Shown: positions 30,039 through 50,904 of the stretch, piece after piece | How the letters are laid out: each line of letters starts with the position of its first letter | Numbering within the stretch: position 1 is the stretch's first letter | NCBI RefSeq assembly: GCF_054482595.1 | Contig: NZ_CM137008.1 | DNA: 64,000 bases | Direction: 5' to 3' (one strand) | Notes under the pieces: generated by a model | What the model saw: only the letters and a program-made list of their open reading frames with translations | Told to the model about the DNA's origin: nothing | Databases searched by the model: none | Translations under genes and position numbers: made by a program

Positions 30039-30039
30039 G

Positions 30040-30129
<90 letters not shown>

Positions 30130-30148
30130 CCGAACCACGAGGCGAAAA

Positions 30149-31962: not shown

Positions 31963-32519
31963 TGACGGGAAAACTGATTTGGTTAATGGGGCCGTCCGGC
32001 TCCGGGAAAGATAGCCTGCTGGCGGAACTCCGCCTGCGGGAACAAACTCAGTTACTGGTGGCGCATCGCTACATCACGCGCGACGCCAGCGCTGGAAGCG
32101 AAAACCATATCGCCCTGAGCGAGCAGGAGTTTTTTACCCGCGCGGGGCAAAACCTACTGGCCTTAAGCTGGCACGCTAACGGTCTGTATTATGGCGTCGG
32201 CGTCGAGATCGACCTCTGGCTGCACGCCGGATTCGACGTGCTGGTCAACGGCTCACGCGCCCATCTGCCGCAGGCGCGGGCGCGCTATGCATCGGCGCTG
32301 CTGCCCATCTGCTTACAGGTGTCGCCGGAGATCCTGCGCCAGCGCCTGGAAAACCGTGGTCGTGAAAACGCCAGTGAAATTAACGCCCGGCTGGCGCGCG
32401 CTGCCCGCTATACTCCACAGGATTGCCATACGCTCAATAATGACGGCAGCCTGCGCCAGTCGGTCGACACGCTGCTGACGCTGATTCATCAGAAGGAGAA
32501 ACACCATGCCTGCTTGTGA
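31962..32519 (+). CDS. phnN: ribose 1,5-bisphosphate phosphokinase PhnN
   Basis: 185 aa; P-loop GPSGSGKDS; 1-bp overlap with phnM stop. Confidence 0.9.
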
Positions 32520-32940
32520 GCTTCGCCCGGCCACGCAGTACGACACCGACGCGGTTTACGCGCTGATTTGTGAGCTAAAACAGGCGGAGTTTGACCATCA
32601 CGCGTTTCGCGTGGGCTTTAACGCCAACCTGCGTGACCCAAACATGCGCTACCATCTGGCGCTGCTGGATGGCGAAGTTGTTGGCATGATCGGCCTGCAT
32701 TTGCAGTTTCATCTGCATCATGTCAACTGGATCGGCGAAATTCAGGAGCTGGTGGTGATGCCGCAGGCGCGCGGTCTGAACGTCGGCAGTAAGTTACTGG
32801 CGTGGGCAGAAGAAGAAGCCCGCCAGGCCGGGGCCGAAATGACCGAGCTTTCCACCAACGTGAAGCGCCACGACGCGCACCGTTTCTATCTGCGCGAAGG
32901 CTACGAGCAGAGCCATTTCCGCTTCACCAAGGCGCTGTAA
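32506..32940 (+). CDS. phnO: aminoalkylphosphonate N-acetyltransferase PhnO
   Basis: 144 aa GNAT-type; overlaps phnN 3' end. Confidence 0.88.
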
Positions 32941-32941
32941 C

Positions 32942-33700
32942 ATGAGCCTGACCCTCACGCTCACGGGCACCGGCGGCGCACAGGGCGTTCCGGCATGGGG
33001 CTGCGAGTGCGCGGCCTGCGCACGAGCGCGACGCTCGCCGCAGTATCGCCGCCAGCCGTGCAGCGGCGTAGTGAAGTTTAACGAGGCTGTCACCCTGATC
33101 GACGCCGGGCTGCACGATCTCACCGATCGCTGGTCGCCAGGATCGTTCCAGCAGTTTTTGCTGACGCATTATCATATGGATCACGTTCAGGGACTGTTTC
33201 CGCTGCGCTGGGGCGTGGGCGATTCGATCCCGGTCTACGGCCCGCCGGATGAACAGGGCTGCGACGATCTGTTTAAACATCCGGGCCTGCTTGATTTCAG
33301 CCACACGGTGGAACCGTTTGTGGTGTTCGATTTGCAGGGGTTGCAGGTGACACCGCTGCCGCTAAACCACTCAAAACTGACCTTCGGTTATCTGCTGGAA
33401 ACGGCACACAGCCGGGTGGCGTGGCTGTCTGACACCGCAGGCCTGCCGGAAAAAACGCTGAAATTTTTACACAATAATCAGCTACAGGTAATGGTGATTG
33501 ATTGCAGCCACCCGCCGCGCGAGGATGCACCGCGTAATCACTGTGATTTAAATACCGTGCTTGCGCTGAATCAGGTTATCCGCTCGCCACGGGTGATTCT
33601 GACCCATATCAGCCACCAGTTTGATGCGTGGCTGATGGAGAACGCGCTGCCGTCAGGGTTTGAGGCGGGGTTTGATGGGATGGAGATTGGGGTGGCGTGA
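32942..33700 (+). CDS. phnP: metallo-beta-lactamase-fold phosphodiesterase PhnP
   Basis: 252 aa; HxHxDH motif ([10 protein letters not shown]). Confidence 0.9.
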
Positions 33701-33732
33701 TGGGGGAGAATGTGCGCGCTGATGCCCTCATC

Positions 33733-33820
33733 CCGGCCCTCTCCCACAGGGAGAGGGAGAAAATCACCCCGTGCACCATCGGTCCCCTCGCCCCTTTGGG
33801 GAGAGGGTTAGGGTGAGGGG
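33733..33820. repeat. GC-rich palindromic intergenic element (family uncertain, possibly Box C-like)
   Basis: ccctctccc-aca-gggagaggg followed by cccctcgcccctttggggagagggttagggtgagggg between convergent phnP and yjdP. Confidence 0.5.
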
Positions 33821-33843
33821 CGATGCCAGCACCCGAGCCTACC

Positions 33844-34173
33844 TCACCGCCCATACTCATCTTCCATTCTCCGCTCTTCATCCTCCAGTTGCCGACGCTC
33901 CTGATCAAGCTGACGTTGGCGATCGTCCAGCTGCCTGCGGCGATCTTCAAACTGGCGGCGGCGGTCGTCATATTGTCTGCGCCGATCGTCGCTCACTTCA
34001 CGCTGCCAGCCGTCGTCGCGCGAATCTTCATAATCTCGCCCACGGTCAGGGTTATAAGCATCGTTAATCGCCTGCTGAATATTGCCAATGGTGTCGTCGA
34101 TAATATCGGCCTGGGCCGGTACGGTGGTCAGCGTGAGCAGGGTGAAAAAAAAGAGCGTGGAGTGGCGTTTCAT
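33844..34173 (-). CDS. yjdP: small secreted low-complexity protein YjdP
   Basis: 109 aa; N-terminal signal peptide; C-terminal DDRRRQ/ERRQ repeats; convergent with phnP as in K-12. Confidence 0.75.
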   Translation of the reverse strand: MKRHSTLFFFTLLTLTTVPAQADIIDDTIGNIQQAINDAYNPDRGRDYEDSRDDGWQREVSDDRRRQYDDRRRQFEDRRRQLDDRQRQLDQERRQLEDEERRMEDEYGR

Positions 34174-34241
34174 AAACTCGGCCTCGCAACAAAGTTAATA
34201 CAAGGTAGGCAAAGGTGCCTGTTACGAGTAGAGGAGGATTC

Positions 34242-36503
34242 TCAATTCTCTTGCCCCAGCGCCTGCGCCAACTGCGCACGGGTAAAGGGTTTGCGCAACA
34301 GCGCCACGTCTGGCAGCGCGGGGTTATGGCTGGGGCGTAAATCCTGACCGCTGATGAGTAGCAGCGTCAGGTGCGGGTAAAGTTTGCGGGCCGCATTGAC
34401 CACTTCTGCGCCGCTCATGCCGCCGGGGAGCATTAAATCGCTGATAAAAATATCGATTTCTGCTGATGCCGCCAGCAGATCCAGCGCCTGTTCGCCGCTG
34501 CTTGCTTCCAGCGTCAAATAGCCCAGCAGGTGCAACTGTTCGCAGATGGTCTGGCGCACCGCGGCTTCATCTTCCAGCACTAACACCAGTTTATCGCCGC
34601 TGACAGAAGCCTGTTCTACTGCCGCTGGCGATAGGTTTTTCGCCGCCGTCAGCGCGCGGGGAAGCTGTAATCTGACCGTTGTCCCCTGCCCCGGCGCGCT
34701 TTCAATTTCAACGCGCCCACCGGACTGGCGCACAAAACCATAGACCATCGACAAACCCAGCCCGCTGCCGCTGCCCGTCTGTTTGGTGGTAAAGAATGGC
34801 TCAAATACCTGGCTTTTCACCGCCTGCGACATACCGCTGCCATGATCGATGACCTCCAGTGCCACCATGTCCTGACGCTGCCCACTGCTGCGAGTAACGC
34901 GCTGATTCCAGGTACGAATTTTGATGATTCCCGTCTGCCCTTCCATCGCGTCACGGGCGTTCATCACCAGGTTGATGATGGCATTTTCCAGTTGGCTGAC
35001 GTCAATCCACGCGGGCCACGCCGGAGACTGCGCTTCAATCTCCAGCGCCAGCGTTGCCGGTAAGGAGTGGCGCATTAATTCGCTTAACTCTTCCAGCAAT
35101 GTTTTCAGTTCAACGGCTTGCGGATGTAAGGACTGCTTGCGGGAAAACGCCAGCAGTCGTTGTGTCAGTAGCGCCCCACGTTCGGCAGCTTGCAGCGCCC
35201 GCTGTATTCGCGGCGCGTCTGGCGAGTCCGGATTCACCAGCTCCAGGCTGCCAATAATCACCGCCAGCAGATTATTAAAATCATGGGCCAGCCCGCCCGT
35301 CAGTTGCCCGACCGCTTTCAGTTTCTGGCTGTGTAATAGCGCCTCTTCCAACCCCTGCCGCTCAGTTTGGGCAATCTCCATCTGCGTGGTCTTCTCTTTT
35401 AGCAGCCGTGAGGTTCGTTCGAGTGACTCGGTATTGCGGGCAAAAACGTTAAAGGCGCGCGCCAGTTCACCCAACTCATCACGCCGCTGTAACGCCGGAA
35501 AAGTGACGTCCGCTTCGCCGTACGCCAGGCGGCTCATGGCGCGGGAAATCGCCGTCAGGTTAGTGCCGAGGTTGCGATAGATATACCAGCCGGCAAACGC
35601 GGTGATCACCACCGCTAACAGGGCGAAAATCATGATCACCCTCTCGCCGGAGCGCAAATCCTGGTAACTTTGCGCCACGCGCTGACCGGAGAGCGTCGCC
35701 ACCTGTTCGGCGTAACGGTTGATGTCGCCATTGAGGATCGCCACCAGCGCTTTGATGTGAAACATATACCAGCTGATTGCCAGATCGCTTTGCTCCAGAG
35801 CGGCAGAAAGCGGCGCGAGTTTACGCATTTCATCATTGAAATCATTGAGTAACGTATTAACCAATGGCATATCGCTGTGGGTCGGCAACGCAGACATTAC
35901 CCCGACCAGTTGATGAATAATCGCCTGCGGCGCGGGGGTGGCAATAGCGGCAACAATCAGTCGGTTCATCTCGTTAAGCAAAATATCATCTTGCGCGTGA
36001 GTGACTTTTTGCAGATGCCGCAGATAACTTAAGTTTTGATACAGCGAACTTAACAGCGCGTTGCGCTCCAGATGCCGCCTTTGCCCGCGCTCCAGCATAC
36101 CGCCGACGCTGGTTTGCAGTTCGTTGCTACGCGTGATGATTCGCGTCACCAGCCCGGCTTCCTGCTGCGCTAAAGGCGCGTTCGCCAGTTGTGCAAGCGA
36201 GCTTTTTAATGCCCGCTGTGTCTCCTGCAACCGCTCGGCTTCGCCTTTATATTCCAGCGCTCCCACCACCTGCGACAATCGCACCGCCGCCGTTGCCACG
36301 TTTGCCGTGTCGCGCGCCAGATTCAGGCTGCCGGTCATATCATCCACCGTTTGCTGCTGCACCAGCTCCTGCATCTGGCTGGCATGACGAAAGCCCATTA
36401 CCGCCACGCCGCTGACCATCAACGTCACCGCCACCACCAGCAAATTCAAAAGCAGCAATCGCCCGCGCGCGCTGGCAAAAAAATGACGTCCGGGGTGCGC
36501 CAT
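34242..36503 (-). CDS. hybrid sensor histidine kinase (periplasmic sensor, HAMP, HisKA, HATPase, C-terminal receiver; no HPt domain)
   Basis: ~753 aa from ATG at 36503 (MAHPGRHFF...) with GGAG 8 nt upstream; two TM segments flank a ~300 aa periplasmic region; H-box GGLAHDFNNLL; G-boxes DHGSGM / GSGLGLSMV; receiver with ISDLMLPGG; protein ends ~25 aa after the receiver. Confidence 0.85.
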   Translation of the reverse strand: MAHPGRHFFASARGRLLLLNLLVVAVTLMVSGVAVMGFRHASQMQELVQQQTVDDMTGSLNLARDTANVATAAVRLSQVVGALEYKGEAERLQETQRALKSSLAQLANAPLAQQEAGLVTRIITRSNELQTSVGGMLERGQRRHLERNALLSSLYQNLSYLRHLQKVTHAQDDILLNEMNRLIVAAIATPAPQAIIHQLVGVMSALPTHSDMPLVNTLLNDFNDEMRKLAPLSAALEQSDLAISWYMFHIKALVAILNGDINRYAEQVATLSGQRVAQSYQDLRSGERVIMIFALLAVVITAFAGWYIYRNLGTNLTAISRAMSRLAYGEADVTFPALQRRDELGELARAFNVFARNTESLERTSRLLKEKTTQMEIAQTERQGLEEALLHSQKLKAVGQLTGGLAHDFNNLLAVIIGSLELVNPDSPDAPRIQRALQAAERGALLTQRLLAFSRKQSLHPQAVELKTLLEELSELMRHSLPATLALEIEAQSPAWPAWIDVSQLENAIINLVMNARDAMEGQTGIIKIRTWNQRVTRSSGQRQDMVALEVIDHGSGMSQAVKSQVFEPFFTTKQTGSGSGLGLSMVYGFVRQSGGRVEIESAPGQGTTVRLQLPRALTAAKNLSPAAVEQASVSGDKLVLVLEDEAAVRQTICEQLHLLGYLTLEASSGEQALDLLAASAEIDIFISDLMLPGGMSGAEVVNAARKLYPHLTLLLISGQDLRPSHNPALPDVALLRKPFTRAQLAQALGQEN

Positions 36504-36616
36504 ATCACGCTCCGTGAAGAAAAATCGCAATATGACAAATATGAACGGCTTCTGACATTTTGCATTTACTTTCCTGTGATGGAGTGCTGATATCGACAAC
36601 CTCGCAGGAGTCCACC
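36504..36616. promoter_or_regulatory. divergent promoter region between the sensor kinase gene and the ABC transporter operon
   Basis: 113-bp AT-rich spacer between divergent start codons; direct repeats tgacaaatatgaa (36533-36545) and tgacattttgcat (36553-36565) spaced 20 bp apart. Confidence 0.5.
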
Positions 36617-38137
36617 ATGAACAGCACGCCAGTTCTGGAGATGCGCAATATTGCCAAAGCCTTCGGCAAATTTTATGCACTCAAAGGGGTGGATTTGACG
36701 GTCTACCCTGGCGAGATCCATGCCCTGATGGGGGAAAACGGCGCGGGAAAAAGCACGCTGATGAAGGTGCTGGCGGGGGCGTATACCGCCACCAGCGGCG
36801 AGATCCTCATAGACGGCAAGCCCTTTCACATTCGCACGCCAAAAGATGCCTTAAGCGCCGGTATTACGCTGATTTATCAGGAGATGCAGCTGGCACCGAA
36901 TCTGTCGGTGGCAGAAAATATTTTTCTCGGCAGCGAGCTTTCCCACGGCGGGCTGGTGCAGCGTAAAGAGATGCTAGTGCAGGCGCAAAAAGTGATCGAC
37001 CGCCTCGGCGCGCAGTTTAACGCCAGCGATAAGGTCATGACGCTGACCATTGCCGAGCAACAGCAGGTCGAAATCGCCCGCGCACTACATCGCAACAGCC
37101 GCATTCTGGTGATGGACGAACCCACCGCTGCCCTCTCCTCCCGTGAAACTCACCGTCTGTTTGAACTGATTATGCGGCTGCGCGATGAAGGGATGGCGAT
37201 TATCTACATCAGCCACCGTATGGCGGAAGTGTATGAGCTTTCCGATCGCGTCAGCGTGCTGCGCGACGGGCAATACGTTGGCAGCCTGACCCGCGATAAC
37301 CTCAATGCCGGGGAGCTGGTGCGGATGATGGTCGGCAGGCCACTGAGCGATCTGTTCAATAAAGAGCGCGATATCCCGCTCGGTAAAGCCCGCCTGAATG
37401 TTCACCACCTGACCGACGGCGGCAAAGTCCAGCCGAGTAGCCTGCTGGTGCGTTCCGGCGAAATTGTTGGCCTCGCCGGACTGGTGGGTGCCGGACGTTC
37501 CGAACTGGCGCAGTTGATCTTCGGCGTGCGGAAAGCGACAGGCGGAATGATTGAAGTCGATGGTGAACCGGTGGTGATCCACTCCCCGCGCGAAGCCATC
37601 GATCTTGGCATTGGTTTTCTCACCGAAAACCGCAAAGAACAAGGCTTATTCCTTGAAATGGCAGCAGCCGAAAACATCACCATGGCAACCCTGGAGCGCG
37701 ATGCCCGCTGGGGAATGCTCAATCGCAAAAAAGCGCAAACCATTTCCGATGACGCCATTAAGTTGCTCAACATTCGCGTGCCTCACGCCCAGGTACGCGC
37801 GGGCGGGCTTTCCGGCGGCAATCAGCAAAAACTGTTGATCTCCCGCTGGGTGGCGATTGGCCCGCGCATTTTACTGCTCGATGAACCCACCCGCGGCGTG
37901 GACGTTGGCGCCAAAAGCGAGATCTACCGGATCATGAACGAGATGGCGCGCAAGGGCGTGGCGATCCTGATGATCTCCAGCGAACTGCCGGAGATAGTGG
38001 GAATGAGCGATCGCGTCTATGTGATGCGCGAAGGCAGCATTGCCGGTGAGTTAAACGGCAAAAACATCACCCAGGAAAACATTATGACCTTAGCGACTGG
38101 CGTCAACGACGCCCATTCCCAGGCGGTAACCTCATGA
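36617..38137 (+). CDS. sugar ABC transporter ATP-binding protein, tandem ABC domains (RbsA/CUT2-type)
   Basis: 506 aa from ATG at 36617 ([16 protein letters not shown]...) preceded by aggag; two Walker A motifs ([18 protein letters not shown]) and two signature motifs (LSGGNQQK in the second half). Confidence 0.88.
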
Positions 38138-39108
38138 CGACCTCTGCAAAAACCTCTGCCAAAAAAATGCTGATGAGCGATCTGATGCAAACGGTCGGCA
38201 TCTTGCCCATTTTGATTCTGATCGTGGCGGTATTTGGCTTTATCGCGCCAAACTTTTTTACCGAAAGCAACCTGCTGAATATTACCCGCCAGGCATCGAT
38301 CAACATTGTTCTGGCGGCGGGGATGACCTTCATCATTTTGACCGGCGGGATCGATCTTTCCGTGGGTTCGATCCTCGGCACCACAGCGGTGGCGGCGATG
38401 GTCGTCTCCCTTAGCCCTGAGTTCGCCATGCTGTCGATCCCGGCAGCGCTGATGCTCGGCCTGCTGCTGGGGCTGTTCAACGGCGCGCTGGTGGCCTTTG
38501 CCGGATTGCCACCGTTTATCGTCACGCTTGGCACCTATACGGCGCTGCGCGGGGCGGCGTATCTGCTGGCGGACGGCACCACGGTTATCAACTCCAACAT
38601 TAATTTCGAGTGGATAGGCAATAACTATCTCGGGCCGGTCCCGTGGCTGGTGGTGATTGCCCTCGCAGTGATTGTGCTGTGCTGGTTTATTCTGCGCCGC
38701 ACCACGCTTGGCGTTCATATCTACGCCGTCGGCGGCAATATGCAGGCGGCGCGTCTTACCGGCATTAAGGTCTGGCTGGTGCTGCTGTTTGTTTATGGTA
38801 TGAGCGGCCTGCTTTCTGGGCTTGGCGGGATTATGAGCGCCTCACGGCTGTACAGCGCCAACGGCAACTTAGGCATGGGTTACGAACTGGATGCCATTGC
38901 AGCGGTGATCCTCGGCGGCACCAGTTTTGTCGGCGGCATCGGCACCATCACCGGCACGCTGGTCGGCGCGCTAATTATCGCCACGCTCAACAATGGCATG
39001 ACCTTAATGGGCGTCTCTTACTTCTGGCAACTGGTGATCAAAGGGGCGGTGATCATCATTGCGGTGCTGATCGACAAATACCGTACCCGACACCATCAAA
39101 GTGCATAA
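38134..39108 (+). CDS. sugar ABC transporter permease (RbsC-like)
   Basis: 324 aa polytopic membrane protein; 4-bp ATGA overlap with the ATPase gene. Confidence 0.85.
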
Positions 39109-39126
39109 ACACATGAGGAATACAGC

Positions 39127-40068
39127 ATGAGATTGAAGCCCTTAGTGACCGCGCTCTATGCAGGCGCGCTGCTGACCGCAGCACCGTTCGCCCAGGCGAA
39201 AGAACTGAAATCGATAGGCGTAACGGTGGGCGATCTGGCGAACCCGTTCTTCGTGCAGATCACCAAAGGCGCGGAGCTGGAAGCACGCAAACTGGCAGGC
39301 GATAACGTCAAAGTGACGCTGGTTTCCAGCGGCTACGATCTGGGTCAGCAGGTGTCGCAGATAGACAACTTTATCGCCGCTAACGTCGATATGATTATCC
39401 TCAACGCTGCCGATTCAAAAGGGATCGGCCCAGCGGTGAAACGGGCGAAAGATGCCGGGATCGTAGTCGTCGCGGTTGACGTAGCGGCAGAAGGTGCTGA
39501 TGCCACCATCACCTCCGATAACACCCAGGCGGGCGAAATGGCCTGTAAATACATCACCGATCGCCTGAAAGGCAAAGGCAATGTGGTGATCATCAACGGC
39601 CCGCCGGTATCCGCCGTGCAAAACCGCGTCGAAGGATGCCAGACTGAATTTAAACGCCATCCTGACATCAAAGTGCTCTCTGACAACCAGAACGCGAAAG
39701 GCAGTCGTGAAGGCGGGCTGGAGGTAATGACGGGACTGCTGGCGGCAAATCCGAAGATCGACGGCGTATTTGCGATTAACGATCCCACCGCAATCGGTGC
39801 CGATCTGGCAGCAAAACAGGCGCAACGTAACGAGTTCTTTATTGTTGGTGTGGACGGAAGCCCGGACGCCGAAGAGGCGCTCAAGCGTGAGAACTCGTTG
39901 TTTGTCGCTACTCCGGCGCAAGATCCCCAGGTGATGGCAGCGAAAGCGGTGGAAATTGGCTACGACATTTTGCAGGGCAAACCTGCGCCGAAAGAGCCGG
40001 TGCTGATCCCGGTGACGATGATCGATAAAAACAACGTCGGCAATTACAAAGGCTGGACGGTGAAATAA
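39127..40068 (+). CDS. periplasmic sugar-binding protein (type I PBP, RbsB-like)
   Basis: 313 aa; signal peptide MRLKPLVTALYAGALLTAAPFAQA; RBS gagga upstream. Confidence 0.85.
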   Translation: MRLKPLVTALYAGALLTAAPFAQAKELKSIGVTVGDLANPFFVQITKGAELEARKLAGDNVKVTLVSSGYDLGQQVSQIDNFIAANVDMIILNAADSKGIGPAVKRAKDAGIVVVAVDVAAEGADATITSDNTQAGEMACKYITDRLKGKGNVVIINGPPVSAVQNRVEGCQTEFKRHPDIKVLSDNQNAKGSREGGLEVMTGLLAANPKIDGVFAINDPTAIGADLAAKQAQRNEFFIVGVDGSPDAEEALKRENSLFVATPAQDPQVMAAKAVEIGYDILQGKPAPKEPVLIPVTMIDKNNVGNYKGWTVK

Positions 40069-40122
40069 GTCCACACGCCGGGCGGCGCAGCTGCCCGGTC
40101 ACCGCTAAGGAGAACGCTTTCG

Positions 40123-40806
40123 ATGAAACGCTCCGCTATAAACGACATTCTCGGCCATACACGGCAATTCTTTTCGCAACATGACGTACATCTGCCGCCC
40201 TTTGCCAGTTTCTCGCCTGCTCAATGGCAGCAGCTCGACACCGCCGCGTGGGAGGAGGTTTTTGATCTTAAACTCGGCTGGGATGTTACCGCTTTTGGTC
40301 GCAACAACTTTGCAGCACACGGGCTGACGCTGTTTACCCTACGTAACGGCTCAGCAAAAGGAATGCCGTATGTGAAATGTTACGCCGAGAAGATCATGCA
40401 TGTGCGCGATGCGCAGGTCACGCCAATGCATTTTCACTGGCGTAAGCGTGAGGACATTATCAATCGCGGCGGCGGTAATTTAATTGTTGAACTGTGGAAT
40501 GCCGATAGTAACGAGCAAACGGCTGATAGTGACATTACGGTGGTGATCGACGGCTGCCGCCAGAAACATACTGCAGGCACTCAGTTGCGCCTGTCTCCCG
40601 GCGAAAGTATCTGCCTGCCGCCCGGCCTGTATCACAGCTTTTGGGCGGAAACCGGCTTTGGCGATGTTCTGGTTGGCGAAGTCTCTTCTGTCAATGACGA
40701 CGACCACGATAACCACTTTTTACAGCCACTGGACCGCTACAACCTGATTGACGAAGACGAACCTGCACAGTTGGTATTGTGTAACGAATACCGCCAGTTC
40801 CGCTGA
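40123..40806 (+). CDS. cupin-fold sugar isomerase, D-lyxose/D-mannose isomerase-like
   Basis: 227 aa; RBS aaggag; His-rich metal-site region (VTPMHFHWRKRE); length and context match my recollection of the characterised pathogenic E. coli D-lyxose isomerase family (not verified by search). Confidence 0.7.
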   Translation: MKRSAINDILGHTRQFFSQHDVHLPPFASFSPAQWQQLDTAAWEEVFDLKLGWDVTAFGRNNFAAHGLTLFTLRNGSAKGMPYVKCYAEKIMHVRDAQVTPMHFHWRKREDIINRGGGNLIVELWNADSNEQTADSDITVVIDGCRQKHTAGTQLRLSPGESICLPPGLYHSFWAETGFGDVLVGEVSSVNDDDHDNHFLQPLDRYNLIDEDEPAQLVLCNEYRQFR

Positions 40807-40820
40807 ATAAGGATAACGTT

Positions 40821-41681
40821 ATGCCATTGATTTCTCTCGCTGAAGGGCTGGCACATGCCCGCGAACATCACTATTCGTTAGGTGCGTTTAATGTGCTGGA
40901 CTCGCACTTTTTACGCGCCTTGTTTGCTGCTGCCAGACAAGAACGTTCGCCCTTTATTATCAACATTGCCGAAGTACATTTTAAATATATCTCGCTGGAT
41001 TCCCTGGTCGAGACAGTGAAATTTGAAGCGGCGCGTCATGCCATTCCGGTGGTGTTAAATCTCGATCACGGACTGCATTTTGAATCGGTGGTGCAAGCGT
41101 TGCGGCTGGGATTCAGCTCGGTAATGTTTGATGGCTCCACGCTGGGGTATGAAGAAAATGTCCGCCAGACGCGGGAAGTGGTGAAAATGTGCCATGCCGT
41201 TGGCGTATCGGTAGAAGCTGAACTGGGCGCGGTGGGTGGCGACGAAGGCGGTGCACTCTATGGCCATGCCGATGAATCCCTGTTTACCGATCCGCAACTG
41301 GCGCGTGATTTTGTCGACCGTACCGGCATTGACGCGTTGGCCGTGGCGATTGGCAATGCACACGGCAAATATCGCGGCGAACCGAAACTCGATTTCCCGC
41401 GCCTCGACGCTATCCGCCAGCAGGCTGCTATCCCGCTGGTATTACACGGCGGCTCAGGGATTAGCGATGCCGATTTCCGCCGCGCCATCGAACTGGGTAT
41501 CCACAAAATCAATTTCTACACTGGCATGTCGCAAGCGGCGCTGGCTGCCGTTGAGGCCCGAATGGCGTACCGTCAGCCGATGTATGACGAGTTTGCCGAG
41601 TTACTGCTGGCAGTGGAAGCCGCCATCAGCGATACGGTTGCACAACAGATGCGTATTTTTGGCAGTGCGGGGCAGGCATGA
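40821..41681 (+). CDS. class II ketose-bisphosphate aldolase family protein (GatY/KbaY/FbaA-like)
   Basis: 286 aa; alignable by eye with GatY (NLDHG, SVMFDGS, SVEAELG, ALAVAIGNAHG, LVLHGGSG motifs). Confidence 0.8.
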   Translation: MPLISLAEGLAHAREHHYSLGAFNVLDSHFLRALFAAARQERSPFIINIAEVHFKYISLDSLVETVKFEAARHAIPVVLNLDHGLHFESVVQALRLGFSSVMFDGSTLGYEENVRQTREVVKMCHAVGVSVEAELGAVGGDEGGALYGHADESLFTDPQLARDFVDRTGIDALAVAIGNAHGKYRGEPKLDFPRLDAIRQQAAIPLVLHGGSGISDADFRRAIELGIHKINFYTGMSQAALAAVEARMAYRQPMYDEFAELLLAVEAAISDTVAQQMRIFGSAGQA

Positions 41682-42679
41682 TGGAGCGTAAAGGAATTAT
41701 CGCCGCAGGCAATATGTTGGTTGACCACGTCCATCAGATTATCCAGTGGCCAGAGCGCGGCTGGCTGGCGGAGATCACCCACAGCGAACGCTCCACCGGC
41801 GGTGCGCCGCTTAACGTCCTGCTGACGCTGGCGAAAATGCGCACCGGGCTGCCGTTACAGGCGGTTGGGCTAATCGGTCAGGACAGCGACGGCGATTACA
41901 TCATGGCGATGCTTGAGCAATATCACGTCAATCGTCAGCATGTGCAGCGCACTACCTTTGCCCCGACGTCGATGTCGCAGGTGATGACAGACCCAAGCGG
42001 GCAGCGGACGTTTTTCCATTCGCCGGGTGCAAACAGACTTTTGGATCTTCCGGCGTTCGATCAGCTCGATAACACCATGAAGATTTTCCATCTCGGCTAT
42101 TTACTGTTGCTCGACAGCCTGGATATGCCGGACGATGTTTACGGCACCCGTAGCGCACGCCTGCTGGCGCAAATGCGTGATACTGGCTTTGAAACCTCAC
42201 TCGACCTGGTCTCCCGTAAGGGCGATCCGCGTTATCAGCCGCTGGTGCTGTCCGCGTTGCGCCATCTGGATTATCTGGTAATTAACGAACTGGAGGCCGG
42301 GGAGTTTAGCGGGCTGGAAATTCGGTTACCCAACGGCGAACCGCATATCGCGCATATTGCTGCCGCCGCGCGTGAACTGTTAGATGCGGGCGTGCGCCAG
42401 CGGGTGGTGATCCACTGCCCGGAAGGGGCGTGGGGAGAGACCCCAGAACAGGGCGGCGTGTGGATCCCTTCGCAAAAGTTAGAACAACGGGAAATTATCG
42501 GCAGCGTCGGCGCGGGCGATGCATTTTGTGCCGGATTTTTATATGGCTGCCATGAACGCTGGACGCTTACCGAGAGCATCAAACTGGCACACGCCTGCGC
42601 GCGGGCAAGCCTGTTATGCGCCAATGCCATCGACGGGGCGAAAACGCTGGAAGAGCTGCAAACAGAAATGTCGGATTAA
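41678..42679 (+). CDS. pfkB/ribokinase-family sugar kinase
   Basis: 333 aa; C-terminal GAGDAF motif (GSVGAGDAFCAGFLYG); 4-bp overlap with the aldolase gene. Confidence 0.8.
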   Translation: MMERKGIIAAGNMLVDHVHQIIQWPERGWLAEITHSERSTGGAPLNVLLTLAKMRTGLPLQAVGLIGQDSDGDYIMAMLEQYHVNRQHVQRTTFAPTSMSQVMTDPSGQRTFFHSPGANRLLDLPAFDQLDNTMKIFHLGYLLLLDSLDMPDDVYGTRSARLLAQMRDTGFETSLDLVSRKGDPRYQPLVLSALRHLDYLVINELEAGEFSGLEIRLPNGEPHIAHIAAAARELLDAGVRQRVVIHCPEGAWGETPEQGGVWIPSQKLEQREIIGSVGAGDAFCAGFLYGCHERWTLTESIKLAHACARASLLCANAIDGAKTLEELQTEMSD

Positions 42680-43383
42680 TGCACGTCGGCAGCGAAGACA
42701 TACCCCAGACCGCGCAGAGTTTTAATCAACATCGGCTGATGCGGGTTGAGTTCGATTTTGCGTCGTAAGCGCATGATTAATACGTCGATGGTGCGATCAA
42801 ACACCTCCACGCTGTCGCTGTGGGTGAACGCCAGCAACTGCTCGCGGCTCAATACCCGACGCGCGTTTTGCGCCAGAGCCAGTAACAAGCCATATTCGCC
42901 CTGAGTTAACTCGACATGTTGCTGAAGCGGATTGTGCAACTGGCAGCGCATGGTATCGAGATACCAGCCATTGAATGACAGCCCGGCGCTTTTCTCGTCA
43001 TTAACCGCCAGCGCACCAACCCGTCGCAACACCGCTTTCAGTCGTGCGACCACCACCCGCGGGGTGAACGGTTTGCAGATGTAATCATCCGCGCCCATTT
43101 CCAGCCCGACCACCACATCAGACTCACTGCCCATGCCGGTCAACATCACCACCGGCAATGTCGGACGCAGTTTCTGGATTTGCTGCAATACCCTCAGGCC
43201 GTTGGTATCGGGTAGCATCATATCCAGCACCACCAGCGCAATGTCAGGATCGCCCTCAATACGCAATATGGCCTCCTGTCCGGTATGGCAGACTGAAACC
43301 GTAAAGACATGTTCACTTAACACGTCCTGCAACAGTGCGCAGATAGCCGTGTCATCATCCACCACCAGCACGACGGGTTTCAT
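42676..43383 (-). CDS. OmpR/PhoB-family response regulator
   Basis: 235 aa from ATG at 43383 (MKPVVLVVDDD...) with GGAG upstream; the track ORF starts 6 codons earlier at 43401; receiver plus winged-helix (LRGLGYVF); 3' end overlaps the kinase gene stop convergently. Confidence 0.85.
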   Translation of the reverse strand: MKPVVLVVDDDTAICALLQDVLSEHVFTVSVCHTGQEAILRIEGDPDIALVVLDMMLPDTNGLRVLQQIQKLRPTLPVVMLTGMGSESDVVVGLEMGADDYICKPFTPRVVVARLKAVLRRVGALAVNDEKSAGLSFNGWYLDTMRCQLHNPLQQHVELTQGEYGLLLALAQNARRVLSREQLLAFTHSDSVEVFDRTIDVLIMRLRRKIELNPHQPMLIKTLRGLGYVFAADVH

Positions 43384-43673
43384 GGTTACACTCCGCATCA
43401 TTCATCTGATTAATCATTGTGCGTACTTCTTGTCGAAGTGAAAGCTGAAAGTAATATAAATAATAAAAATATAAGTCAGGTCACATTATTGATGATAGTA
43501 ATAAATATGCCGTACTTTTCCCTCTTCAGCACAAATGCCTAATAAAATGGATCGTTCCGCTCACACTTCCACTTATTAAAGTCGCAATTTCCCAATTATG
43601 ATAACGCCAGCTTTAAATGACGTATTTTGCATGGATTACATATTTACGACATAAATGATAAATGGAGATTTAT

Positions 43674-45659
43674 ATGAATAACTCTCGGTTATTCCGTTTG
43701 AGCAGGATTGTTATTGCGTTAACCGCCGTCAGCGGCATGATGGTAAATACCGCTAACGCGAAAGAGGAAGCGAAAGCCGCCACTCAATATACCCAACAGG
43801 TTAATCAGAATTACGCCAAATCATTACCGTTTAGCGATCGTCAGGATTTTGACGATGCCCAGCGTGGATTTATCGCCCCGCTGCTGGATGAAGGTATTCT
43901 GCGTGATGCGAACGGTAAAGTTTACTACCGCGCAGACGATTACAAATTTGATATTAATGCCGCTGCGCCGGAAACCGTAAACCCCAGCCTGTGGCGTCAG
44001 TCGCAGATCAACGGCATATCTGGCCTGTTCAAAGTCACCGATAAAATGTATCAGGTGCGCGGCCAGGATATCTCTAACATTACGTTCGTTGAGGGCGAGA
44101 AAGGCATTATTGTCATCGACCCGCTGGTGACGCCGCCTGCCGCAAAAGCCGCACTTGACCTTTACTTCCAGCATCGTCCGCAAAAACCGATTGTTGCCGT
44201 TATTTACACTCACAGCCACACTGACCACTATGGTGGCGTGAAAGGTATTATCTCTGAAGCCGATGTTAAATCCGGCAAAGTTCAGGTGATTGCCCCTGCT
44301 GGCTTTATGGACGAAGCCATCAGCGAAAACGTGCTGGCGGGTAACATCATGAGCCGCCGTGCGCTCTACTCTTACGGTCTGTTACTGCCGCACAACGCGC
44401 AAGGCAACGTGGGTAATGGCCTTGGCGTGACGCTGGCAACCGGCGACCCGAGCATTATTGCGCCAACCAAAACTATCGTCAGAACTGGCGAGAAGATGAT
44501 TATCGACGGCCTGGAGTTTGACTTCCTGATGACCCCAGGCAGCGAAGCCCCAGCCGAAATGCACTTCTATATTCCGGCCCTGAAAGCCCTGTGTACCGCC
44601 GAGAACGCCACGCATACCCTGCACAACTTCTACACTCTGCGCGGCGCGAAAACCCGCGATACCAGCAAGTGGACAGAGTACCTGAACGAAACGCTGGATA
44701 TGTGGGGTAACGACGCGGAAGTACTGTTTATGCCGCACACCTGGCCGGTCTGGGGCAATAAGCATATCAATGATTATATTGGTAAATATCGCGATACCAT
44801 CAAGTATATTCACGATCAAACCCTGCATCTGGCGAACCAGGGCTACACCATGAATGAAATCGGCGACATGATTAAGCTGCCGCCTGCGCTTGCCAATAAC
44901 TGGGCCAGCCGCGGTTATTACGGTTCTGTCAGCCACAACGCCCGCGCGGTGTATAACTTCTATCTTGGCTATTACGACGGTAACCCGGCTAACCTGCATC
45001 CGTATGGTCAGGTAGAGATGGGCAAACGTTACGTGAAAGCGCTGGGCGGTTCTGCCCGTGTCATCAACCTGGCGCAAGAAGCGAACAAGCAAGGTGATTA
45101 CCGCTGGTCGGCAGAACTGCTGAAACAGGTGATTGCCGCCAACCCGGGTGACCAGGTCGCGAAGAATCTGCAAGCGAATAACTTTGAACAGCTGGGCTAT
45201 CAGGCCGAGTCCGCCACATGGCGCGGTTTCTACCTGACCGGCGCGAAAGAGCTGCGCGAAGGGGTGCATAAGTTCAGCCACGGCACCACCGGTTCCCCGG
45301 ACACCATTCGCGGAATGTCGGTCGAAATGCTGTTCGACTTTATGTCCGTTCGCCTCGATAGCGAAAAAGCCGCGGGTAAAAATATCAGCCTGAACTTCAA
45401 TATGAGCAACGGCGATAACCTCAACCTGACGCTGAACGATAGCGTGCTTAACTACCGTAAAACGCTGCAATCCCAAGCTGACGCCTCTTTCTACATCAGT
45501 CGTGAAGATCTGCACGCCGTGCTGACCGGACAAGCCAAAATGGCGGATCTGGTAAAAGCGAAGAAAGCCAAAATTATTGGCAATGGTGCGAAACTGGAAG
45601 AAATTATTGCCTGTCTGGATAATTTCGATTTGTGGGTAAATATCGTAACCCCAAATTAA
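43674..45659 (+). CDS. yjcS: metallo-beta-lactamase-fold alkyl/aryl sulfatase
   Basis: 661 aa from ATG at 43674 ([21 protein letters not shown]...); signal peptide; HxHxDH motif ([10 protein letters not shown]). Confidence 0.85.
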
Positions 45660-45669
45660 TGCCACTCAC

Positions 45670-45695
45670 TTTTGGGGGCGCTTAAGCCCCCAAAA
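45670..45695 (+). terminator. hairpin terminator downstream of yjcS
   Basis: ttttgggggc / gcccccaaaa inverted repeat with 6-nt loop; A/T runs on both sides. Confidence 0.6.
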
Positions 45696-45867
45696 GCATT
45701 TACTTTAAAAATATATGCAGCCAATTAATAAATAAAACATATAAGTTATGAATGCGGTGGCTGAATAAAGCTATTTTTATTCATCAAGAAAATAGCCATA
45801 CTGACGCCTTCAATGGATAGTGATATTCACTACAGATATTGTTCGCAGCAGACAGGATGTATTTAAT

Positions 45868-46143
45868 ATGCCAACAGTTCTCTCTCGCATGGCGATGCAA
45901 CTCAAAAAAACAGCCTGGATAATTCCCGTCTTCATGGTTTCGGGATGTTCATTATCTCCGGCAATCCCGGTGATCGGCGCTTATTATCCCAGCTGGTTTT
46001 TCTGCGCCATTGCCAGCCTTATATTGACGCTCATCACGAGGCGAGTTATTCAGCGGGCAAATATCAAGCTGGCATTTGTCGGAATTATTTATACCGCCCT
46101 TTTTGCTCTCTACGCCATGCTGTTCTGGCTGGCATTTTTCTAA
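45868..46143 (+). CDS. ytcA: small lipoprotein YtcA
   Basis: 91 aa from ATG at 45868; lipobox MVSGC; upstream of mdtN. Confidence 0.75.
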   Translation: MPTVLSRMAMQLKKTAWIIPVFMVSGCSLSPAIPVIGAYYPSWFFCAIASLILTLITRRVIQRANIKLAFVGIIYTALFALYAMLFWLAFF

Positions 46144-46161
46144 TCTATTTGAGACGCGCTC

Positions 46162-47193
46162 ATGGAAAGTATGCCGAAAAAAGCTCCTCGCAGTAAATTC
46201 CCTGCTCTGTTAGTGGTTGCGTTGGCGCTGGTTGCCCTTGTTTTCGTTATCTGGCGCGTAGACAGTGCGCCATCAACTAATGACGCTTACGCGTCAGCAG
46301 ATACCATTGATGTGGTGCCGGAAGTCAGCGGTCGCATTGTAGAACTGGCGGTCACCGACAACCAAGCGGTGAAGCAGGGCGATTTGCTGTTCCGCATTGA
46401 CCCGCGCCCGTACGAAGCCAATCTGGCGAAAGCCGAAGCCTCCCTCGCGGCACTGGATAAGCAAATTATGCTCACCCAGCGTAGCGTTGACGCGCAACAG
46501 TTTGGTGCCGACTCGGTTAACGCCACGGTAGAAAAAGCCCGTGCCGCCGCTAAACAGGCCACAGATACATTACGCCGCACCGAGCCATTACTGAAAGAAG
46601 GTTTTGTCTCAGCGGAAGACGTTGACCGTGCGAGGACCGCGCAGCGCGCTGCAGAAGCGGATCTTAATGCCGTATTGTTACAGGCGCAGTCAGCCGCCAG
46701 CGCCGTCAGCGGCGTCGATGCGCTGGTGGCGCAACGTGCGGCGGTCGAAGCGGATATTGCCCTGACCAAACTGCATCTGGAAATGGCGACCGTTCGCGCA
46801 CCGTTTGATGGCCGGGTCATTTCCCTCAAAACCTCCGTCGGGCAATTTGCTTCTGCCATGCGCCCTATTTTTACCCTAATCGACACTCGTCACTGGTACG
46901 TGATCGCCAACTTCCGCGAAACCGATCTGAAAAATATTCGCTCAGGTACACCCGCAACGATTCGCCTGATGAGTGACAGCGGCAAAACTTTCGAGGGTAA
47001 AGTGGATTCGATTGGCTACGGCGTGCTACCGGATGACGGCGGCCTGGTGCTGGGCGGCCTGCCAAAAGTGTCTCGCTCTATTAACTGGGTCCGCGTTGCC
47101 CAGCGTTTTCCGGTCAAAATCATGGTCGATAAACCTGACCCGGAAATGTTCCGCATCGGCGCTTCGGCAGTCGCTAATCTTGAGCCGCAATAA
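46162..47193 (+). CDS. mdtN: membrane fusion (HlyD-family) efflux component
   Basis: 343 aa; N-terminal TM anchor; operon position. Confidence 0.88.
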   Translation: MESMPKKAPRSKFPALLVVALALVALVFVIWRVDSAPSTNDAYASADTIDVVPEVSGRIVELAVTDNQAVKQGDLLFRIDPRPYEANLAKAEASLAALDKQIMLTQRSVDAQQFGADSVNATVEKARAAAKQATDTLRRTEPLLKEGFVSAEDVDRARTAQRAAEADLNAVLLQAQSAASAVSGVDALVAQRAAVEADIALTKLHLEMATVRAPFDGRVISLKTSVGQFASAMRPIFTLIDTRHWYVIANFRETDLKNIRSGTPATIRLMSDSGKTFEGKVDSIGYGVLPDDGGLVLGGLPKVSRSINWVRVAQRFPVKIMVDKPDPEMFRIGASAVANLEPQ

Positions 47194-49244
47194 TGAGCGC
47201 GCTCAACTCCCTGCCATTACCGGTGGTCAGGCTGCTGGCGTTCTTTCATGAAGAGTTAAGCGAGCGGCGACCAGGTCGCGTGCCGCAGACCGTGCAACTC
47301 TGGGTAGGCTGCCTGCTGGTGATTCTGATCTCGATGACTTTTGAGATCCCTTTTGTGGCGTTATCGCTGGCAGTGCTGTTTTACGGTATTCAGTCGAACG
47401 CGTTTTACACCAAATTTGTCGCGATCTTGTTTGTGGTTGCCACGGTGCTGGAGATCGGCAGCCTGTTTTTGATCTACAAATGGTCATACGGCGAACCGTT
47501 GATCCGCTTGATCATCGCCGGACCGATCCTGATGGGCTGCATGTTTTTGATGCGCACCCATCGCTTGGGGCTGGTCTTTTTCGCCGTCGCCATTGTCGCT
47601 ATTTACGGGCAAACCTTCCCCGCCATGCTCGACTATCCGGAAGTGGTCGTGCGCTTAACGCTGTGGTGTATCGTTGTTGGCCTCTATCCAACCTTGCTGA
47701 TGACGTTAATCGGCGTGCTGTGGTTTCCCAGTCGTGCCATTTCGCAAATGCATCAGGTGCTTAATGATCGGCTTGATGATGCCATTAGCCACCTGACGGA
47801 CAGCCTCGCACCGCTACCCGAAACGCGGATTGAAAGAGAGGCGCTGGCGCTGCAAAAACTCAATGTCTTTTGCCTCGCGGACGATGCCAACTGGCGAACC
47901 CAGAGTGCATGGTGGCAAAGCTGCGTGGCAACGGTAACCTACATTTACTCGACGCTGAATCGCTACGATCCCACCTCTTTTGCTGATTCTCAGGCAATTA
48001 TTGAATTCCGACAAAAATTAGCTTCAGAAATCAACAAGCTGCAGCATGCCATTACCGAAGGTCAGTGCTGGCAAAGCGACTGGCGGATCAGTGAAAGTGA
48101 AGCGATGGCGGCACGGGAATGTAACCTGGAGAATATCTGCCAGACACTGTTACAGCTTGGTCAGATAGACCCGAATACGCCGCCAACGCCCGCAGCCAAA
48201 CCGCCATCAATGGCCGCCGATGCTTTTACCAATCCAGACTATATGCGCTACGCGGTAAAAACGCTGCTCGCCTGTTTGATCTGTTACACCTTCTACAGCG
48301 GCGTGGACTGGGAAGGCATTCACACCTGTATGCTGACCTGCGTGATCGTCGCTAATCCGAATGTCGGTTCATCGTACCAGAAGATGGTGCTGCGTTTTGG
48401 CGGGGCCTTTTGCGGCGCGATTCTGGCGCTGTTATTCACGCTACTGGTCATGCCCTGGCTGGACAATATTGTCGAATTGCTGTTTGTGCTGGCACCGATT
48501 TTCCTGTTGGGCGCATGGATTGCCACCAGCTCTGAACGCTCTTCTTATATCGGCACACAGATGGTGGTTACCTTCGCGCTCGCCACGCTCGAAAACGTTT
48601 TTGGCCCGGTGTACGACCTGGTGGAAATTCGCGATCGCGCCCTGGGTATCATCATTGGTACCGTGGTGTCCGCGGTGATTTACACCTTTGTCTGGCCTGA
48701 AAGTGAAGCGCGCACGCTGCCGCAAAAACTGGCTGTCGCGCTGGGTATGTTAAGTAAAGTAATGCGGATCCCACGCCAGCAGGAAGTCACGGCTCTGCGC
48801 ACTTATCTGCAAATTCGTATAGGTCTGCATGCGGCGTTTAATGCCTGTGAAGAGATGTGCCAACGCGTGGCGCTGGAGCGTCAACTGGACAGCGAAGAAC
48901 GCGCCTTACTGATTGAACGTTCGCAAACGGTTATTCGTCAGGGCCGCGATCTTCTTCACGCCTGGGATGCCACCTGGAACTCGGCGCAGGCGCTGGATAA
49001 CGCACTACAGCCGGACAGAGCAGGTCAGTTTGCCGACGCTCTGGAAAAATACGCTGCCGGTCTGGCAACCGCACTCAGCCGTTCTCCTCAAATAACGCTT
49101 GAAGAGACACCCGCCTCGCAGGCCATCCTGCCCACCTTATTAAAACAGGAGCAACACGTCTGCCAGCTTTTCGCCCGCTTGCCAGACTGGACAGCCCCGG
49201 CATTAACGCCCGCCACGGAACAGGCACAAGGAGCCACACAATGA
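47193..49244 (+). CDS. mdtO: inner-membrane efflux component (aromatic acid exporter-like)
   Basis: 683 aa polytopic protein; TAATG stop/start overlap with mdtN. Confidence 0.88.
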   Translation: MSALNSLPLPVVRLLAFFHEELSERRPGRVPQTVQLWVGCLLVILISMTFEIPFVALSLAVLFYGIQSNAFYTKFVAILFVVATVLEIGSLFLIYKWSYGEPLIRLIIAGPILMGCMFLMRTHRLGLVFFAVAIVAIYGQTFPAMLDYPEVVVRLTLWCIVVGLYPTLLMTLIGVLWFPSRAISQMHQVLNDRLDDAISHLTDSLAPLPETRIEREALALQKLNVFCLADDANWRTQSAWWQSCVATVTYIYSTLNRYDPTSFADSQAIIEFRQKLASEINKLQHAITEGQCWQSDWRISESEAMAARECNLENICQTLLQLGQIDPNTPPTPAAKPPSMAADAFTNPDYMRYAVKTLLACLICYTFYSGVDWEGIHTCMLTCVIVANPNVGSSYQKMVLRFGGAFCGAILALLFTLLVMPWLDNIVELLFVLAPIFLLGAWIATSSERSSYIGTQMVVTFALATLENVFGPVYDLVEIRDRALGIIIGTVVSAVIYTFVWPESEARTLPQKLAVALGMLSKVMRIPRQQEVTALRTYLQIRIGLHAAFNACEEMCQRVALERQLDSEERALLIERSQTVIRQGRDLLHAWDATWNSAQALDNALQPDRAGQFADALEKYAAGLATALSRSPQITLEETPASQAILPTLLKQEQHVCQLFARLPDWTAPALTPATEQAQGATQ

Positions 49245-50707: not shown

Positions 50708-50715
50708 AATGTCTG

Positions 50716-50750
50716 CCGCGTGATGGCTGTCACGCGGTATTTCGTTTCGT
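50716..50750 (+). terminator. rho-independent terminator downstream of mdtP
   Basis: ccgcgtga / tcacgcgg stem with loop tggctg, followed by tatttcgtttcgt. Confidence 0.7.
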
Positions 50751-50837
50751 CACGTCAAAACTGACGACAGCCTGTTTTTCGTCAGAGTTTTGAATAAATA
50801 GTGCCCGTAATATCAGGGAATGACCCCAAATAAAATG

Positions 50838-50853
50838 TGGCATAAAAGATGCA
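50838..50853 (+). promoter_or_regulatory. sigma54 (-24/-12) promoter of fdhF
   Basis: TGGCAT-N5-ATGCA with GG-to-GC spacing of 12 nt, about 50 bp upstream of the fdhF ATG; fdhF is an established sigma54/FhlA-dependent gene. Confidence 0.8.
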
Positions 50854-50904
50854 TACTGTAGTCGAGAGCGCGTATGCGTGATTTGATTAACTGGAGCGAG
50901 ACCG

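Follow-up and report, generated by a model that had tools for sequence, protein, structure and literature searches.

The AT-rich gap between lmvR and yjcS beside Escherichia coli O-island 167 is probably a resident divergent control region

Introduction

O-island 167 of Escherichia coli O157:H7 EDL933 is located between yjdP and yjcS, in the place of rpiB-als. It has been described as the LmvK/LmvR system with lmuKAIZYX, responsible for mannose and lyxose use and for activation of the LEE virulence locus (Yang et al. 2023, PMC10128022), and as RbfS/RbfR (Z5692/Z5684), a riboflavin-sensing system (PNAS 2022, PMC9860305). The regulator gene lmvR is inducible by mannose and lyxose (PMC10128022) and by riboflavin (PMC9860305). 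Both papers regard the block as an EHEC-associated island gained horizontally, and neither mentions an ancestral block or a replacement involving rpiB-als.

The stretch analyzed here (the window) comprises 64,000 nucleotides of contig NZ_CM137008.1 (NCBI RefSeq assembly GCF_054482595.1). It carries the genes of O-island 167 in the same order and at the same site (yjdP, block, yjcS), with 99.0% identity to EDL933 over 10.2 kb and one SNP in the 290-bp gap between lmvR and yjcS, but the background is non-O157, unlike EDL933. The window is nearly identical to E. coli XH990, a urine isolate (3 SNPs and one 1-bp indel); crfC (18788-21016) shows a 1-bp indel in respect to XH990, where this gene is annotated as frameshifted. 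The main features, based on the XH990 annotation and family matches, are:

34242-43383, block O-island 167: lmvK (minus strand), lmuX, lmuY, lmuZ, lmuI, lmuA and lmuK (plus strand), lmvR (minus strand)
42676-43383, minus strand, lmvR/rbfR (Z5684, EDL933_5428), response regulator of the OmpR/PhoB family
43674-45659, plus strand, yjcS, alkyl sulfatase, a core gene

The products of the block are a kinase, an aldolase, a D-lyxose/mannose isomerase, a sugar ABC transporter, and a hybrid histidine kinase. The flanks consist of yjdP and the phn operon beyond lmvK, and of ytcA, mdtNOP, and fdhF beyond yjcS.

Two further kinds of described systems resemble this locus. With autoregulated regulators of the OmpR/PhoB type it shares a divergent gene across an AT-rich gap of ~300 bp, which, according to the published work, is bound by the regulator itself; unlike in those promoters, the LmvR-bound fragment lies nearest to the core gene yjcS, and no direct repeat of the kind found upstream of lmuX is recognizable. 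With the replacement ("alternative cassette") loci of E. coli it shares three states at one site, fixed breakpoints, and a peak of divergence beside the indel; unlike in typical replacement loci, it is the rarer cassette that appears ancestral, with its ends at the lmvK stop codon and ~22-69 bp upstream of lmvR. An AT-rich divergent gap at the edge of a well-described block is already known, and the ancestral-locus reading is the only, mildly new, part. The reading preferred here, with a probability of roughly 0.72, is that the gap is a native divergent lmvR/yjcS control region, that its AT-richness is resident, and that the lmvK-lmu-lmvR block is ancestral.

Results

Position and composition of the gap

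The preliminary description, made from the sequence alone, reported about 290 bp of AT-rich non-coding DNA between GC-richer genes, and its limits are exact. Positions 43384-43673 form the whole non-coding gap between the divergent genes lmvR/rbfR (minus strand) and yjcS (plus strand). The start codon of lmvR is the reverse-strand ATG at 43381-43383, in agreement with the published deletion and expression primers, and the ATG of yjcS is at position 43674. The GC content of the gap is 0.331 (290 bp), compared with 0.551 for lmvR and 0.520 for yjcS. The lowest value (GC 0.203, ~80% AT, with many TpA steps) is observed in the 59 bp at 43453-43511, to which the run aatataaataataaaaatataag (43454-43476) belongs, while the segments outside this core have a GC content of 0.35-0.46 (54-73% AT in the count made for the H-NS question). 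The window has 26 intergenic regions of 60 bp or longer (mean GC 0.466, standard deviation 0.098), among which the gap is the second most AT-rich, and five core-gene intergenic regions also have a GC content of 0.37 or less:

crfC/yjdM intergenic region, GC 0.317
melR/adiA intergenic region, GC 0.348
adiA/adiY intergenic region, GC 0.349
yjcS/ytcA intergenic region, GC 0.351
gltP/nrfG intergenic region, GC 0.367

The contrast in base composition is real, yet ordinary for promoter-bearing gaps of E. coli. No Rfam family at a permissive threshold and no tRNA are present in 43384-43673, and a short-repeat search of the gap returned only two-copy families, probably due to chance. An imperfect direct repeat of 23 nt in the yjcS leader (43598-43620 and 43655-43677, 17/23 positions identical) may also be a chance occurrence; its second copy runs across the Shine-Dalgarno sequence of yjcS into the start codon and includes the sole perfect ATATGA half-site.

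Three haplotypes in E. coli

Of 5,426 complete E. coli genomes, 410 (7.6%) carry the lmv block together with the present gap, a patchy distribution that includes non-EHEC strains. An als-deleted remnant occurs in 1,568 of the same genomes (29%), and the remaining ones carry rpiB-alsRBACEK, as K-12 does. The als-deleted scar consists of an rpiB remnant, with an internal deletion of 150 bp, fused to the last codons and the hairpin of alsK; in annotations it appears as a 105-aa "RpiB/LacA/LacB family" protein (comparison locus L003, 5651-6000; also L006 and L007). The possibility that this haplotype carries a different RpiB-family gene was ruled out, as the gene is the K-12 rpiB, which has lost an internal stretch and runs into the last codons of alsK. 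The spacer upstream of yjcS in the als-deleted haplotype is ~76 bp longer than that of K-12. Apart from the haplotypes, yjcS (43674-45659) is unusually variable in E. coli, with 86.5-98% nucleotide identity to the window, a separate allele class of 87-88% at the protein level, and a few genomes in which the far 3' part alone matches.

Segments of the gap

The gap can be divided into four segments according to their similarity to genomes lacking the block:

43384-43405, minus strand, lmvR leader with the Shine-Dalgarno sequence GGAG (reverse complement of 43391-43394)
43406-43452, segment absent from K-12, ending in a GAAAG(C/T) tandem duplication (about 43436-43452)
43453-43511, AT-rich core, homologous to the K-12 and als-deleted spacers (63-75% identity)
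43512-43673, plus strand, conserved yjcS-proximal control region (96-98% identity among all E. coli haplotypes)

The preliminary description took the interval as the likely junction of the block and looked to K-12 for the breakpoint, and a break in similarity is found there: K-12 shows no match before 43453, 63-71% identity over 43453-43511, and 98% identity from 43512, so that the interval does not match K-12 from end to end. In a megablast search of the 5,426 complete genomes the block-free matches begin at 43453 or 43512, and with sensitive blastn the similarity starts at 43453 for the K-12 type and the als-deleted type alike. The Smith-Waterman scores of the AT-rich core are 27 against the K-12 spacer and 20 against the als-deleted spacer (11.7 and 10.1 for shuffled sequences, of which 0/1000 reach these scores). 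Across lmv-bearing Escherichia the core is 85-100% identical.

Closer to lmvR, positions 43406-43439 are weakly but significantly similar to the final ~32 nt of the als-deleted spacer, colinear with its junction (Smith-Waterman score 13; shuffles 7.0 ± 1.2, 2/1000 reaching 13), and the GAAAG tandem duplication of the window separates this stretch from the part common to the als-deleted spacer. For the leader at 43384-43405, alone in the gap, no counterpart was detected in any genome lacking lmv, whereas two other lmv-bearing Escherichia lineages have it at 91-100% identity. The stretch lacking a counterpart in block-free genomes thus appears, from these alignments, to measure merely 22 to 69 bp adjoining lmvR, with the AT tract on the shared side.

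In the case of 43512-43673, homology extends to E. fergusonii and Salmonella (64-65% identity, with conserved blocks; Smith-Waterman scores of 41-43 against 10-11 for shuffles, 0/1000). Local alignment of the AT-rich core with the spacers of the same two taxa is not significant, because AT-rich shuffles score equally high. Local alignment of the lmvR-proximal 128 nt with the DNA upstream of lmvR in 11 other genera likewise gave no significant similarity, and the orthology of this stretch therefore rests on its position and one short motif.

AT-richness upstream of yjcS

The spacer upstream of yjcS has a GC content of 0.357 in K-12, 0.317 in als-deleted E. coli, and 0.314 in E. fergusonii, all three with alsK as the upstream neighbor, and 0.318 in Salmonella, where the neighbor is phnP and neither cassette is present. 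In five arrangements the value remains within 0.31-0.36, independently of the upstream neighbor. AT-richness therefore appears to be a long-standing feature of the DNA 5' of yjcS in enterobacteria, and not one introduced by a foreign island. Since the tract of the window is homologous to K-12, and the yjcS spacers are equally AT-rich where the block is missing, the tract is no mark of the junction, contrary to the preliminary description, nor of imported DNA.

Synteny and divergence in other enterobacteria

Relatives of LmvR with the same gene cluster are found in Citrobacter, Pluralibacter, Pseudescherichia, Enterobacter, Leclercia, Cedecea, Serratia, and Pantoea. The order in Citrobacter is phnJ-P, yjdP, lmvK, lmuXYZIAK, lmvR, fdhF, yjcO, gltP, nrfG, which is the order of the window minus yjcS-ytcA-mdtNOP, and P. 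vulneris is analogous (comparison loci L096 and L098). The divergent neighbor of lmvR is fdhF in at least six genera, and the fdhF regulatory DNA of those genera, with its sigma-54 promoter and FhlA sites, aligns with the mdtP-fdhF spacer of E. coli. The DNA upstream of fdhF (50708-50904 in the window) is strongly conserved in the mdtP-fdhF spacers of E. coli and Salmonella and in the lmvR-fdhF spacer of other genera (L009-L030, 3713-4000); yjcS-ytcA-mdtNOP therefore sits between genes that are adjacent elsewhere. Between the window and Citrobacter, nucleotide identity is 74-88% for the block genes and 70-88% for the flanking core genes. Citrobacter was rejected as a donor, with LmvR only 80% identical and the block as diverged as the flanks.

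Two more Escherichia lineages carry the arrangement of yjcS, the 290-bp spacer, and lmvR, with LmvR identities of 95% and 93% (the latter in Escherichia sp. MOD1-EC5495). Their 290-bp spacers align with that of the window with no indels and at 85-100% identity in every segment. In MOD1-EC5495 the block genes (89-94% identity to the window) and mdtNOP (91-92%) are equally diverged. The cluster of this cryptic-clade strain lacks lmuI (isomerase) and lmuA (aldolase) (L100, 10705-12708), and an extra ORF of 237 aa is present between lmvK and yjdP. E. fergusonii is of the als type, and Salmonella has neither cassette. Within E. coli the block also occurs outside EHEC, in the urine isolate XH990 and in a pig ETEC. 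The occurrence in other genera and in non-EHEC E. coli contradicts the published picture of a block found only in EHEC and O55:H7 as a result of lateral transfer.

Neither mark of a classical island, a site empty in relatives or a divergence unlike that of the flanks, was found in Citrobacter, P. vulneris, and the two Escherichia lineages. Among the best LmvR matches no other named Escherichia species has a representative genome, and vertical retention therefore needs several losses or a long-lived polymorphism. On balance, the comparison leans towards O-island 167 being the ancestral enterobacterial order between phn/yjdP and fdhF, with the rpiB-als state of K-12-type E. coli and E. fergusonii derived.

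Edges of the block

The right edge, in the gap, has its counterpart on the left:

34147-34241, left boundary zone, comprising the 5' tip of yjdP and the 68-bp yjdP-lmvK spacer, colinear with the yjdP-rpiB spacer of K-12

In this zone the window is 58% identical to K-12, on a level with K-12 against E. fergusonii (63%) or Citrobacter (66%); for the whole yjdP the identity is 95%. At both edges colinear stretches of 58% (left) and 63-75% (right) identity switch abruptly to 95-98%. The genes lmvK and rpiB share the ending AATTGA, and the ~20 nt past the stop codon are conserved in both haplotypes and in Citrobacter (34242-34262; L004, 2534-2555), so that the left end of the replacement falls almost exactly at the stop codon. 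Positions 34147-43511 form a deeply diverged haplotype block in E. coli-like flanks, a pattern compatible with an old replacement polymorphism as well as with a re-import.

Between the window, O157:H7, and O145:H28 the gap shows one SNP each; not until about 43687, within yjcS, do SNPs between lmv-positive lineages become roughly ten times denser. In respect to EDL933 the block is 99.3% identical, compared with 92-98% for the flanks, and this greater uniformity points to a recent spread between E. coli lineages via recombination in the flanks. In a comparison of 43278-43677 with another E. coli locus (L102), the first 100 nt of lmvR and the whole gap differ by 1-2 SNPs per 100 nt, and outside this stretch the differences amount to 5-11 SNPs per 100 nt in lmuK and lmvR and ~5 per 100 nt in yjcS. 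The low divergence of the gap between these two sequences reflects either a recombination patch or strong constraint on a control region.

The best surviving alternative to ancestral retention is that a block of Escherichia origin was lost and then regained from a diverged relative by homologous recombination. One crossover would lie near 34147, in the 5' tip of yjdP, and the other at 43511/43512, and the gap would then contain a genuine recombination junction where the AT-rich core ends on the right. Such a history would account for edge stretches at the level of inter-genus divergence with their abrupt switch to near-identity, and for a block more uniform among E. coli lineages than its flanks, and lmv-bearing relatives with the same yjcS adjacency do exist. 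However, an old balanced replacement polymorphism, with recombination suppressed beside the indel, predicts the same pattern, and the blocks of the known relatives are 5-10% diverged from that of the window, so none of them qualifies as the donor. Re-import is therefore held to be a serious but clearly less probable course of events.

Composition of the block and H-NS

In the view of both published papers the block is foreign, and the preliminary description took the AT tract as the likely recombination junction and as a typical target of H-NS, which could silence lmvR. The presence of the block in just 410 of 5,426 complete genomes and an 80% AT core rich in TpA steps would suit an inserted island with an H-NS-bound junction, and the published faster evolution of H-NS-bound upstream regions would fit the hypervariable 43453-43511. 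The AT tract, however, has its homolog in K-12, and the DNA upstream of yjcS is equally AT-rich where the block is missing. The GC content of the block (0.563) exceeds that of the window (0.541) and of its coding sequence (0.548), and the block is therefore not AT-rich foreign DNA. No integrase, transposase, or other mobility gene is present in the block in the XH990 annotation, no tRNA lies within 30000-48000, and no pair of direct repeats joins the block ends. The synteny and the flank-like divergence in Citrobacter and in the cryptic Escherichia lineage argue for ancestry.

For the high-affinity H-NS motif tCG(t/a)T(a/t)AATT, with up to 2 mismatches allowed, no match is found in 43384-43673, compared with 0-3 matches in the other AT-rich gaps, and the supplements of the H-NS ChIP study PMC4720273 have no yjcS/alsK entry. 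The locus shares with known cases of xenogeneic silencing by H-NS an AT tract with TpA steps 5' of a regulator gene, but differs from them in that the tract is just 59 bp long and consists of resident DNA, the block is GC-rich, and the high-affinity motif is absent. Induction of lmvR by mannose, lyxose, and riboflavin also speaks against silencing. Silencing of lmvR by H-NS is speculative, and a horizontally inserted foreign island is judged improbable. Of the proposal that the gap is the recombination junction of the block, the break in similarity within the gap stands, but the block is probably no insertion, given the synteny and the flank-like divergence.

Promoters and regulator binding

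Since lmvR and yjcS are divergent, the promoters of both must lie in the gap, as the preliminary description had stated. According to PMC10128022, an lmvR-lacZ fusion whose fragment corresponds to 43343-43847 is active and autoregulated, and LmvR shifts an EMSA probe within this fragment, which is described there as lmvR autoregulation. The elements located in or near the gap are:

43470-43485, minus strand, candidate CRP-like site TGTGACCTGACTTATA (8/10 consensus positions; centre 94.5 nt upstream of the lmvR ATG)
43539-43754, LmvR EMSA probe, from the primers 5428EMSA-F/R mapped onto the window
43597-43602, plus strand, candidate -10 element TATGAT for yjcS (TATGAT/TATTAT conserved across E. 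coli, E. fergusonii, and Salmonella)
43664-43667, plus strand, yjcS Shine-Dalgarno sequence GGAG

A scan of 43250-43800 for consensus sigma-70 promoters and terminators returned no promoter and one weak terminator, inside yjcS. By eye, a sigma-54 promoter in the gap was considered and rejected, as TTGCA at 43627-43631 has no GG at -24; K-12 possesses a better, TGGCAC-like sigma-54 element, located in als-specific DNA that is missing from the window. In published in vitro screens the K-12 yjcS spacer binds NtrC, the RpoN holoenzyme with NtrC, and SutR (RpoN and NtrC by gSELEX).

The EMSA probe covers the yjcS-proximal, K-12-conserved half of the gap, 156-370 bp from the lmvR ATG, and the perfect ATATGA half-site at 43672-43677 is its sole motif match. 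Upstream of lmuX, a perfect LmvR site, ATATGA-N3-ATATGA, is found at 36530-36544. No such tandem pair of half-sites is observed in the gap (0.3 expected), and the best match there to the RbfR motif of ler, TCTCACATAATTTATATCATT, agrees in 14/21 positions, a value equalled by 21% of shuffles. The published LmvR ChIP-seq "peak" at lmvR was set aside as evidence of binding. It covers coding sequence only (EDL933 5208479-5209126), with 38,000-45,000 reads compared with ~600-2,900 elsewhere (20-70x), and lmvR is on a plasmid in the strain used. The signal is probably a copy-number artefact of the plasmid copy, with no binding implied. The differentially expressed genes listed in the published work do not include yjcS.

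In respect to the CRP-like site (consensus TGTGA-N6-TCACA), six other enterobacterial lineages have a similar one, TGTGA-N6-TTAAA, centred 93.5 to 95.5 nt upstream of the lmvR ATG. For a CRP-like site to fall at that distance by chance P = 0.0016, the site having been noticed post hoc. In the six lineages a conserved CAGAAT implies a start ~60.5 nt downstream of the site; no -10 element is recognizable in E. coli. In the same lineages the site also marks the border between the fdhF regulatory DNA and the lmvR-proximal ~100 nt. From the spacing, we infer that lmvR retains a candidate CRP-like site at a distance from the start codon conserved across genera.

The absence of a sigma-70 promoter in the consensus scan and of a tandem LmvR site would be expected of a mere spacer that holds only ribosome-binding sites, with promoters elsewhere or read-through, but each of two divergent genes needs its promoter there, fragments of the gap serve in the published lacZ fusion and EMSA, blocks of it are conserved between E. 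coli, E. fergusonii, and Salmonella, and the K-12 spacer binds NtrC, RpoN, and SutR in vitro, so this reading is scarcely credible.

Discussion

The preferred reading of the gap as a native control region beside an ancestral block can be outlined as follows. The gap would hold the leader and promoter of lmvR on the minus strand and the promoter and leader of yjcS on the plus strand, and LmvR, as published, binds the yjcS-proximal half and thereby autoregulates lmvR. The order lmvK-lmu-lmvR would be the original one at the phn/yjdP-fdhF locus. Replacement of the block by rpiB-alsRBACEK would have followed in E. fergusonii and most E. coli, and 29% of E. coli would later have lost that cassette. 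Of the old lmvR-yjcS control region, the replacement, which extended from lmvK through lmvR, would have spared 220-270 bp, now the alsK-yjcS spacer. If the block is ancestral, the K-12-type "breakpoints" (43453, or about 43406 with the longer spacer) would therefore be the ends of the replacement in the other haplotypes, and the jump of identity from 65-75% to ~98% at 43511/43512 would mark the right edge of an old diverged haplotype block.

The coordinates, composition, homology limits, synteny, and divergence on which this outline is based come from the present comparison, and promoter activity, LmvR binding, and inducibility from the literature; our own deductions concern the ancestral polarity, where the promoters lie, and the CRP-like site. 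Several observations speak against the preferred reading, namely the lack of other named Escherichia species among the best LmvR matches, the greater uniformity of the block than of its flanks between the window and O157, the lack of significant similarity of the lmvR-proximal 128 nt to other genera, the lack of a sigma-70 consensus promoter, and the fact that neither the LmvR nor the RbfR motif exceeds chance in the gap.

The limits of similarity at the right end of the block are now precise to the base (43453, possibly 43406, with near-identity from 43512), and the value of AT-richness as a marker of import is undercut at this locus. Comparison with K-12 alone is poor ground for assigning the status of an acquired island. 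In respect to polarity, the gene orders suggest that the two published papers probably read it backwards, the block being ancestral and the allose cassette the newcomer. If this is true, the input into EHEC virulence, in which sensing of mannose or riboflavin acts on the LEE, would have been retained or regained within the genus and not imported, and an ancestral block would call for a different account of how this sensor system came to be tied to EHEC virulence.
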